Positions 9,175 to 11,513 of a stretch of DNA of 19,738 nucleotides are shown one piece after another; the stretch's first letter is position 1, and each line of letters starts with the position of its first letter. A program made the translations under genes and the position numbers. The DNA lies in assembly GCA_029856435.1 (NCBI GenBank), contig JAHQXB010000130.1:1-19738 (forward strand). The letters run 5' to 3'. Under the pieces are notes generated by a model. It was given only the letters and a program-made list of their open reading frames with translations, searched no databases and was not told the origin of the DNA. Source of the DNA: Candidatus Jordarchaeia archaeon (GTDB lineage: Archaea; Asgardarchaeota; Jordiarchaeia; Jordiarchaeales; Jordiarchaeaceae).

Positions 9175-10338
9175 TTAACGCTTAAAAAGTCGCAGCAAGT
9201 GCTTGCGCGTCACAAGCTCAACTTCGATCCACAGGGCAATAATAATTATTATGAGGCCAAGCAGATCTCCCATAACACAATAAACTATTATGCCCGCGCC
9301 TCCAAAGAACAAAAGTAGAGTCAAAGCCATCCCCGCCACCTTCCTCTGGTTAAATGCGTCATCCCTCCTAATTCTGGATAGAATCAGCTTCCAAAAAGCA
9401 AAGGGTAAAACCAAATAGTAAGCACCGCCAAAAAGTCCGAACCACCAAAAAACTTCAGAATGTAGGGTGTCCAGAACATTAACTCAAAAACCAAAACTAA
9501 AGCGACGTAGACTTTCCAACCCACAAATCTCTTCTTAGAACTAGTTAAATTTAGTGTGGGCAGGCGTAGGTGATGTAGATTTATTCGATTCCATCTCCCT
9601 AATAAGGCTCCAAATCGTGAAAAAAGCCCTATAAACACCCCCCTTTTTGAGGCGAAACCGAACGATTCTGCATCACCGCAGGCGTATGACGAGTAGGGGC
9701 AATACCAAAATTGCCGCCAGCTGAATGACTATGGACTCCCAAGTGGGGTAAAACCTCGCAGAATTTATTAGAATGAAATTGTCGAGAAAGAACTGGGGTC
9801 TAAAAAGCAGGAAGGCGAAATGCTGGCTGGTGTTGACCATATTCAAAACATAATTTGGAACAAGCAGATAAAGCACTGCTAAATATCCCAGAACTGGAGC
9901 ATACTGCCATTTGGACAGCACGGGACCCACTTTTTTCCTAGGTACGATAATGTCCGCTATGATGAAGGTTAAAATTACAGTGTATATTGCATGGAACTCT
10001 GAAATGAAAACCGCCCAAGGCACATTTAAACCCAAGTAGCGCCCATAGCCCACTGCAATCTGGGAATACCCGGGCAAGAGGTTTGTGAGAGCCAAAAAAC
10101 CCTCCTCCAGGATTCCATATATAAATCCTATTAGGAGCAGTTTGCGGTAGTCCAGAGAGTATCGGGAAACCAAATCCTCAATAACCAGCAGGGAAAGCCC
10201 ATAGAACATAAATGTAACAAAAATAGACCAAGGATCATAAACCCACTTGTAGGGAGGCGTAGCTCCCGAAAGAGACTCAGCATTAAAGGCTCCCAGAACC
10301 ATTATGCATATATTCCCCTTCCACTTCCAAACATCCAT
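9175..10338 (-). pseudogene. Multi-pass membrane protein gene interrupted by a MITE and a second frameshift
   Basis: Three ORF pieces (9673-10365, 9384-9638, 9175-9414) form one hydrophobic protein (...YGILEEG...YGRYLGLNVPWAVFISEFHA...). Deleting the element plus one TSD (118 bp) joins ...VIRL to PTLNLTSSKK... in frame. Adding one base, most simply in the T6 run at 9447-9452, joins the last piece and gives 348 aa from ATG 10338. Confidence 0.8.
9569..9677. mobile_element. 109-bp MITE-like element, copy 1
   Basis: Perfect 9-bp direct repeat GCAGGCGTA at 9560-9568 and 9678-9686. Terminal inverted repeats GGTGATGTAGATTTATTCGATTCCATCTC and GGTGATGCAGAATCGTTCGGTTTCGCCTC match 21/29. No coding capacity. 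Confidence 0.9.
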
Positions 10339-10352
10339 AAGACATCCATAAG
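10331..10352. repeat. 11-bp tandem duplication at the start codon of the minus-strand membrane gene
   Basis: ACATCCATAAG occurs twice (10331-10341, 10342-10352), and each copy carries a minus-strand ATG. Confidence 0.85.
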
Positions 10353-10461
10353 ACACTCCAACCAATTATTTCCAGAAGGTGTATCTCCTAATTTGGCTTT
10401 CACCATGCAAGAACAGAATCCCTTTTCCACCCTTAGAAGAGTTTTTTATGCCATTCCCAAA

Positions 10462-10570
10462 CGCGGTGTAGATTCGTCCAATTTCGCCTTCGAAGGAAGC
10501 TTTCATAGGGCTTCTTTTCCAATTATAGAGCCTCAAAATGAGGTGTGGAATCGGACTAATCTACATCACC
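10462..10570. mobile_element. 109-bp MITE-like element, copy 2 (opposite orientation to copy 1)
   Basis: 9-bp direct repeat ATTCCCAAA at 10453-10461 and 10571-10579. The right end reads GGTGATGTAGATTAGTCCGATTCC on the minus strand; the left end is decayed (CGCGGTGTAGATTCGTCCAATTTCGCCT). It shares internal blocks ATAGGGCTT, GAGCCT, GGAATCG and AATCTACATCACC with copy 1. Confidence 0.88.
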
Positions 10571-10646
10571 ATTCCCAAACCACAAATAACTTAAATAATT
10601 GTTTAGGAAATATTACAGTCATCACTAGAAGTGGAGAAATGTTTGA

Positions 10647-11513
10647 ATGATTGTAGATGTTCACACCCATCCTGTATGCAAAGATTTGACGCCCACACCC
10701 GACCCCCAAACCCTTATCAAAAACCTTTTTGGAGAACGGGCGAAGACTGCAAGGTCTCAAATGGTCATAAACGGATTCCTGTTCCTACACCAGAACCAAA
10801 CCATTGAGGACTTCGTAAGAGCCTTCAACTCTGCGGGAATAGACAAAGCTGTGATTGTACCCATGGACATGACCACAGAATATGGAGTACAGCTGGGTAC
10901 AAATGAAGATATTGCCCGAATGAGGAACAAGTTTCCCGAAAAACTCATAGGCTTCTCATCTGTGGATCCCCGCCGAAAAGATGCAGTTCAAGCCTTAGAG
11001 CACGCCGTCAAAGACCTCAAACTGAAGGGATTGAAACTTGTGCCACCCCTACAAAAATTCGACATAAGCGACAGAAAATACGACCCACTATGGGAAAAAG
11101 CCCTAGATCTAAACATACCGGTGTGGACTCACGCCGGTCACCAAGCCTCCGTTCCCACCTCCGTAGCCAAGTATGGGCACCCCATGCTCATAGATGAAGT
11201 AGCCAGAAGATACTCAGACCTCATCATCATAATGGGCCACCTCAGTGCACCCTGGTTTATGGACGCCTGGTCACTAACCCTACGTCACGAAAACGTTTAC
11301 TTGGATGTTTCCGTCTGGTACAGCCTCTACCCTTACTTCCCCTGGAGCGCCTACACAGACAACGGCATAGAACACAAGCTACTCTTCGCTACAGATTTCC
11401 CATTCACACCCTTCAACATTGGGATACAAGCCGTAAAAAATCTGCCAATAAGCGAGGAATTTAAAAGAAAAATCCTGGGAGAAAACGCACAAAAACTGTT
11501 AAACATTAAGTGA
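10647..11513 (+). CDS. Amidohydrolase-family metal-dependent hydrolase (Amidohydro_2 type)
   Basis: DVHTH, KGLKL, VWTHAG, IIMGH, NVYLDVS, LLFATDFPF; GGAG SD upstream. Confidence 0.9.
   Translation: MIVDVHTHPVCKDLTPTPDPQTLIKNLFGERAKTARSQMVINGFLFLHQNQTIEDFVRAFNSAGIDKAVIVPMDMTTEYGVQLGTNEDIARMRNKFPEKLIGFSSVDPRRKDAVQALEHAVKDLKLKGLKLVPPLQKFDISDRKYDPLWEKALDLNIPVWTHAGHQASVPTSVAKYGHPMLIDEVARRYSDLIIIMGHLSAPWFMDAWSLTLRHENVYLDVSVWYSLYPYFPWSAYTDNGIEHKLLFATDFPFTPFNIGIQAVKNLPISEEFKRKILGENAQKLLNIK

Follow-up and report, generated by a model that had tools for sequence, protein, structure and literature searches.

A high-copy MITE family of the Asgard class Jordarchaeia and an insertion sequence that shares its ends

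Among known prokaryotes the Asgard archaea stand closest to eukaryotes, and little of their mobile DNA has been charted. The stretch of DNA analysed here (the window; 19,738 nucleotides, contig C19 of a Candidatus Jordarchaeia archaeon) carries two 109-bp repeats in opposite orientation at 9569-9677 and 10462-10570, 784 bp apart. The original prediction, made from the sequence of the window, took them for a family of MITEs (miniature inverted-repeat transposable elements), which are short non-coding elements unable to move themselves, and named an IS1-like transposase as the enzyme that mobilises them. Given the two copies, we asked whether they are indeed mobile elements and which transposase is responsible for moving them. 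We find that they are genuine members of an abundant MITE family of the genus, most likely served in trans by the transposase of a 1.4-kb insertion sequence (IS) with the same asymmetric ends, and that this IS does not belong to the IS1 family. The genome studied (G000; 3.54 Mb, 181 contigs, 42% GC, 97.8% complete) was compared with those of five sibling species of the same genus (G001-G005; class Jordarchaeia, alias Freyarchaeia), of which G002 is Candidatus Jordarchaeum madagascariense, G005 is a complete genome and G001 is 87% complete in 640 contigs; the host genus of the MITE thus includes Candidatus Jordarchaeum.

Two insertions and the family they belong to

Copy 1 (9569-9677, plus strand, subfamily A) has the left end GGTGATGTAGATTT and the right end GATTCTGCATCACC, and its terminal repeats extend over 29 nt at 72% complementarity, in keeping with the imperfect inverted repeats of about 29 bp described originally. 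It is bounded by a perfect 9-bp target-site duplication, GCAGGCGTA, at 9560-9568 and 9678-9686. Copy 2 (10462-10570, minus strand, subfamily B) lies between its own perfect 9-bp duplication, ATTCCCAAA, at 10453-10461 and 10571-10579, an exact repeat that can be extended to 12 bp (CCATTCCCAAAC); its end of the IS-left type is at 10570 and an atypical right end, CACCGCG, is at 10462. Compared with the 108-bp consensus of subfamily A, copy 1 is 95% identical and scores 95 bits against the family profile, and copy 2 is 93% identical to the subfamily B consensus with a profile score of 91 bits.

The 4-kb region around both copies aligned to G001, G003 and G004 at 87-93% identity and to G002 and G005 at 70-78%, and these alignments stopped precisely at the element borders. 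Upon excising each element in silico, leaving flank, one 9-mer and flank, the copy 1 site aligned without gaps to four siblings (G001, G002, G003 and G004) and the copy 2 site to two (G001 and G003). At the copy 1 site the siblings have one 9-mer (GAAGGCGTA, GCAGGTGTA or GTAGGCGTA), as they do at the copy 2 site (ATTCTCAAA or ATTTTCAAA). Because the siblings hold unoccupied sites with a single 9-mer, both window copies are real, species-specific insertions. Their different duplications, their membership in different subfamilies and the empty sites in siblings support two independent insertions, as had been proposed.

A blastn search with both window copies returned about 125 places in G000, and a profile built from 26 diverse copies, with up to 150 candidates scored per genome, gave at least 147 matches there, so that the expectation of a large family with further copies was borne out; the MITE accounts for about 0.4% of the genome. 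The profile matched 90 times in G003, 62 in G004, 45 in G001, 13 in G002 and 9 in the complete genome G005, once in a genome from another family of the same order (G009), and not at all in four other genomes of the order, also from another family. No match to copy 1 was found by blastn in 35 Asgard genomes outside the genus, and no copy was found in the viral contigs that were scanned. A 68-nt MITE-like stretch in G005 (locus L034) was set aside, being only a partial relic with no adjoining transposase.

Within G000 the family divides into subfamily A, which resembles copy 1 (64 full copies, 108-bp consensus, median 97% identity to it), and subfamily B, which resembles copy 2 (21 full copies, 108 bp, median 95% identity) and is marked out by an unusual right tip, CACCGCG; the consensuses of A and B share 75% identity. 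Among the 26 diverse copies both ends keep the core GxxGATGxAGAxT with hardly any variation (left GGYGATGYAGATT, right GGYGATGYAGAAT), the imperfect terminal repeat reaches about 24-29 bp, and no open reading frame (ORF) is confined to the element. Exact flanking duplications were present in 61 of the 89 full-length G000 copies, measuring 9 bp in 28 cases, 10 bp in 31 and 11 bp in 2, and both the 9-bp and the 10-bp class occur in subfamily A and in subfamily B. Were every duplication 9 bp long, chance extension would by our own estimate make about a quarter of them read as 10 bp, where about half were observed, indicating that the enzyme makes staggers of both 9 and 10 bp. The 9-bp duplication noted at first is therefore correct for the window copies but not as a feature of the family, which has 9 or 10 bp.

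The same holds for length. The family ranges from 98 to 109 bp and most copies measure 107-108 bp, so that 109 bp is not a fixed family length, and the suggestion that spacing between synapsed ends dictates it finds no support in view of this range, of a 178-bp composite element that bears its own 10-bp duplication and of the 1.4-kb IS with the same ends. Since subfamily A copies are at the median 97% identical to their consensus, recent common descent better explains the uniform length. One subfamily B copy (C79:34526-34830) retains an intact 10-bp duplication, TGTCTATGTG, and is interrupted at position 63-69 by about 196 bp of inserted sequence, probably another small nested element.

The repeats passed each test made of their MITE status, being short and non-coding, dispersed, provided with terminal repeats, target duplications and empty sites, and ending like an IS; the original assignment to a non-autonomous MITE family is thus upheld, and the target duplications and empty sites demonstrate mobility. 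It is plausible that the family has so far gone unannotated: it has no Rfam match, and a literature search turned up nothing published on Asgard MITEs or on Jordarchaeia transposases, with ISfinder and the MITE-Tracker archaeal catalogue lying outside the comparison.

An insertion sequence with the same ends

A scan of the sibling genomes for the 13-nt terminal motif yielded many matches that lay tens of bases inside contig ends and pointed outwards. At least 17 contig ends of G002 share up to 119 bp of sequence starting GGCGATGTAGATTCGTTCGATTTT, which then diverges into an open frame running to the contig tip, and these ends encode the C-terminus of an IS transposase. A homologous IS end was also present at several contig ends in G003 and G004, and the IS breaks the assemblies of all three siblings. 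A first metagenome scan found nothing. A degenerate pattern derived from the conserved coding part retrieved a complete IS of 1418 bp from a public metagenome contig (L133:526-1943), with the left end GGTGATGTAGATTTATT, the right end GGTGATGTAGAATTGC (read inwards) and a single 410-aa ORF. An autonomous element sharing the MITE end, as the original prediction had anticipated, was thereby recovered. On the minus strand beside the left end of this copy (L133:3-587) lies a serine-recombinase gene with a MerR-type N-terminus that resembles IS607-type TnpA.

The ends of the L133 IS match those of subfamily A at 17/20 positions on the left and 17/20 on the right, where the tip is identical at 13/13. 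The common termini are GGYGATGYAGAWT, and the asymmetry between AGATT on the left and AGAAT on the right is the same in IS and MITE. The right end of the IS in G002 agrees with the right end of the resident MITE at 23/24 positions, and here the similarity beyond the 13-nt core is still significant (p = 0.004). Duplication lengths agree as well: in G003 two left-end and two right-end contigs join via 10-bp duplications (CAGTGTTATA and TAGCATGCCA), for which we estimate a chance probability of about 2e-5 over 24 pairings, and an IS-family member whose protein is 62% identical is flanked by a 9-bp duplication. Even members whose proteins are only 39-40% identical terminate in CGTGATGCAGATT and CGTGATGCAGAAT. 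Pieces of the transposase were detected in G000, G003, G004 and G010; G000 contig C51 runs out in an IS left end of the very type found in G003, and contig C171 starts with a 152-bp internal IS remnant at 91% identity. The MITE and the IS therefore share their ends and their duplication length, and the IS is present in the genus. That the transposase of this IS, rather than another, moves the MITE is what these sequence correspondences suggest.

Other candidates for a partner were rejected. Matches to the IS1595 domain PF12762 exist in G003 and G004, at loci that have no MITE-like ends; an IS5-like element (end GAACTTGTTAAAAAA) and a TnpB-like element of G000 are both unrelated to the MITE ends; and the long elements between MITE-like 13-mers in G000 (on contigs C49, 2.4 kb; C145, 1 kb; C169; and C72) carry genes for a transporter, a coiled-coil protein or a P-type ATPase and none for a transposase. 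G000 holds a further multi-copy, assembly-breaking element unrelated to the MITE, with the end GAACTTGTTAAAAAATAATTGG and an ORF that by eye resembles an IS4/IS5-type DDE transposase (C10:4412-5113, C39:50093-50791, C77:11259-11737 and C176:1-488).

The 410-aa partner transposase consists of an N-terminal CxxC...CxxC zinc ribbon, a predicted helical DNA-binding region and an RNase-H-like core. In an alignment of 38 family sequences every member has D191 and at least 90% have D269 and E349, the three residues being carried by the conserved blocks ADETYP, TDG...Y and TNAIEGGNWR.K. With this conserved triad and a confident AlphaFold model (pLDDT 90.9), the enzyme shows the DDE (RNase-H) fold. The best match of the model in the PDB was the IS256-family ISCth4 transposase (6xg8; E 1.1e-6, TM-score no higher than 0.44); further RNase-H-fold transposases and retroviral integrases came next, and its language-model neighbours fall in clusters of the IS66, ISL3, MULE/IS256 and IS6 types. 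A Pfam search gave no DDE domain above threshold and no assignment, and NCBIfam likewise gave no family assignment, only weak and mostly N-terminal matches among the 38 members (IS66 in 30, ISL3 in 25, ISKra4 in 11, IS6 in 7, ISH6 in 2 and IS1 in 1). The best of the IS66 matches reached 5.8e-14 and all scores were far below the curated 180-bit cut-off, the 410-aa query itself scoring 31 bits; no curated family cut-off was reached for membership in IS66, ISL3, ISKra4, ISH6 or IS256. Sequence and predicted structure together place the protein as a DDE enzyme in the IS66/ISL3/IS256 neighbourhood that no tested family claims.

About 100 homologues of the transposase were found, nearly all unnamed and most of them carried by contigs of 1.4-2 kb; the sources named are Jordarchaeum, Nanoarchaeota, Nitrososphaerales and Halobacteriales. 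The homologue on a Halorarius halobius plasmid (WP_049987710.1, 441 aa) is labelled a hypothetical protein by PGAP. Seven loci (L154-L160) from five haloarchaeal genera (Haloarchaeobius, Halobellus, Halorussus, Halarchaeum and Halorarius) match the query in nearly the same way as one another, at 36% identity and E values of 2e-76 to 4e-76. A search for terminal repeats around these seven genes found none, and at four of the loci it picked up one and the same set of spurious 'ends', which points to a common flanking sequence; here the gene may belong to a larger element that the loci share, or be domesticated. Full-length IS copies also occur on short contigs labelled Candidatus Hadarchaeum sp. 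(L148, 93% protein identity) and Deltaproteobacteria bacterium (L150, 62%), a placement in unrelated lineages explained either by a mis-binned repeat contig or by horizontal spread.

Members of the partner family are about 1.4-1.6 kb long, encode one zinc-ribbon/HTH (helix-turn-helix)/DDE transposase, have termini of the form (G/C)G(Y)GATGYAGA(T/A)T and make 9-10-bp duplications. They are spread over Asgard, DPANN-type, Methanosarcinales, Nitrososphaerales and haloarchaeal sequences, and Pfam, NCBIfam and PGAP all miss them. We tentatively raise the possibility, without favouring it, that this IS founds an undescribed archaeal family whose MITE is still transposing in Jordarchaeum.

Insertion sites and the interrupted gene

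Reconstructed target sites fall inside an open frame of at least 150 aa in 6 of 61 cases, compared with 77% of random positions, and copy 1 is among the six. The MITE copies accumulate in intergenic DNA, and copy 1 is a rare intragenic case. The target flanks are weakly AT-rich at about 12 bp on either side of the duplication, in a sample too small for a motif to be claimed.

Copy 1 splits a conserved membrane-protein gene of about 350 aa (9175-10365, minus strand), whose product has no family in a Pfam search and whose intact orthologues in G002, G003 and G004 measure 350-358 aa. The gene now reads as ORF fragments at 9673-10365, 9384-9638 and 9175-9414. Deleting 9569-9686 joined the first two of these in a single frame matching the intact sibling orthologues, confirming the earlier observation that copy 1 interrupts a reading frame. 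Compared with three siblings there is also a 1-bp deletion near 9422 (window 9415-9425; AGTAAG-CACC against AGTAAGCCACC), which is a second inactivating lesion or possibly an assembly error. At 10331-10352 an exact 11-bp tandem duplication, two units of ACATCCATAAG, overlaps the start codon on the minus strand; it is specific to G000, with one copy of the unit in siblings. The gene is a pseudogene on account of the copy 1 insertion, the 1-bp deletion and the duplication at the start codon, and copy 1 has helped to make it so. Counting both MITEs, the frameshift and the tandem duplication, one gene has gathered four lesions.

Copy 2 is located between this gene and a divergent amidohydrolase gene (10647-11513, plus strand; PF04909 Amidohydro_2, E 2.2e-37), ends 76 bp upstream of the amidohydrolase start codon, and so occupies a divergent promoter region.

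Mechanism, alternatives and relation to known systems

Under the proposed mechanism, the MITE would retain nothing but the pair of ends recognised by a DDE transposase, and the 410-aa enzyme encoded by the IS would act on them in trans. The enzyme would join the ends to the target at staggered cuts of 9 or 10 bp, and repair of the gaps would leave the 9-10-bp duplications. The IS256 family moves by a copy-out/paste-in route, and both the high copy number of the MITE and the structural likeness of the predicted transposase to ISCth4 suggest a similar replicative route. The absence of the window insertions from siblings with 87-93% identical flanks indicates that a burst of transposition followed speciation, and the family may well still be active.

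Several observations weigh against this reading. The IS was found by tracking the 13-nt terminal motif itself, which biases the match between ends; outside G002 the similarity of IS and MITE past that core was not above shuffled controls, and the interior of the MITE has no detectable IS origin. The full-length IS copies read in one piece, L133 and L148, have no flanking duplication, which at L133 the adjoining serine-recombinase gene may explain. No complete IS copy, and with it no intact transposase gene, was recovered in the G000 assembly, and the transposase search was negative in the 640 contigs of G001, a genome with 45 MITE matches.

Three other explanations were considered alongside mobilisation by the partner IS. 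The original prediction favoured an IS1-family transposase, either InsAB'-like or of the archaeal single-ORF type, and there are resemblances to support it: the left end of subfamily A starts with GGTGATGC, the first 8 nt of the left inverted repeat (IRL) of E. coli IS1A, IS1 typically generates duplications of about 9 bp, and in 12 of the 38 family members the partner's zinc ribbon gives a weak match to the IS1/IS1595 zinc-domain model. Beyond those 8/8 positions, however, identity to the IRL falls to chance level (9/13, then 11/20), and the IS1 family end consensus, GGnnnTG, is too short to discriminate. The IS1 DDE domain PF03400 had no match in G000 or G001-G005, while control genomes responded, and the IS that does share the MITE ends encodes a protein with an hhalign probability of 1.1% against E. 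coli InsB; the NCBIfam IS1 model (transpos_IS1) matched 1 of the 38 partner-family members, at E 6e-4, compared with 30 of 38 for IS66. An IS1 partner was rejected on these grounds, and this part of the prediction is largely refuted, with next to no probability left to it. Hardly more credible is the view that the repeats are functional host elements rather than selfish DNA, acting as a small RNA with a structure of its own, as a promoter cassette or as a site for protein binding. Single copies do fold better than shuffled sequences, more strongly on the strand running from right to left end (z -3.9 and -5.8), yet RNAalifold gave essentially no consensus structure across 87 distinct copies (0 and -3.2 kcal/mol) and an Rfam search of the MITE had no match, which together rule out a conserved RNA structure. 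An interior block resembling an archaeal TATA box, TTTATAGGGCTTC (alignment columns about 55-70, window 9625-9637), is conserved on that same strand, but subfamily B and the G002 copies have it in changed form. Neighbouring genes face the MITE with their starts more often than with their stops (77 against 43), although the starts meet the left end (38) and the right end (39) equally, a lack of bias that speaks against an orientation-specific promoter role; and target duplications and empty sites mark insertion by transposition.

The remaining alternative, that the MITE is a fossil whose transposase is extinct in the host and whose immobile copies persist by neutrality, we regard as unlikely, albeit less so than the other two. 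It would account for the G000 assembly, where no intact transposase gene is present and the IS is represented solely by a left end abutting the edge of a contig and by a truncated remnant, and for the complete genome G005, which has nine MITE matches and was negative in the transposase search. Short-read metagenome-assembled genomes (MAGs) nevertheless lose multi-copy IS elements routinely, as in G002 and G003, and old relics would be hard to reconcile with the median 97% identity of subfamily A, with the perfect duplications kept in 61 of 89 copies, or with two insertions missing from species so similar in their flanks.

With mobilisation by the partner IS as the preferred reading, the MITE itself is biologically ordinary, a new member of a well-known class, and its movement in trans by a DDE transposase is textbook biology; of greater interest is the by-product, a parent IS family that has gone unannotated. 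Within the genus the MITE is a visible driver of recent genome change, through species-specific insertions, its part in inactivating at least one gene and its presence in many promoter regions, and the parent IS accounts for many contig breaks in Jordarchaeia MAGs. Recognising the transposase family, now filed under 'hypothetical protein', would improve the annotation of IS elements and MITEs across several archaeal phyla. If the proposal of a new, active family proves true, this would be the first characterised Asgard IS-MITE pair and a possible natural tool for insertional genetics.

The closest parallels are MITEs of archaea and bacteria that stem from DDE insertion sequences, of which Sulfolobus SM1-SM4 are examples. 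These share with the present family a small size (about 108 bp here), a non-coding interior, imperfect terminal repeats in common with an IS, duplications of the length made by that IS, high copy number, intergenic preference and division into subfamilies. The Jordarchaeia family differs in its host, an Asgard archaeon, in ends and a transposase that come from a family unnamed in Pfam, NCBIfam and PGAP, and in an interior without detectable derivation from the IS. The likeness to IS1A is confined to the first 8 nt of one end, a duplication length of about 9 bp and a zinc ribbon at the N-terminus of the transposase; the ends are dissimilar past 8 nt, the transposase is unrelated at family level, and the partner has a single 410-aa ORF with no insA/insB frameshift in 1.4 kb, as opposed to the 768 bp of IS1A. 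With IS66, ISL3, ISKra4 and IS256 the partner transposase shares the layout of zinc ribbon, helix-turn-helix and DDE core. It scores far below the 180-bit cut-off against the IS66, ISL3 and ISKra4 models, with mainly N-terminal coverage, its termini are unlike the GTAA ends of IS66, and its duplications reach 10 bp where 8-9 bp is usual in all four families.

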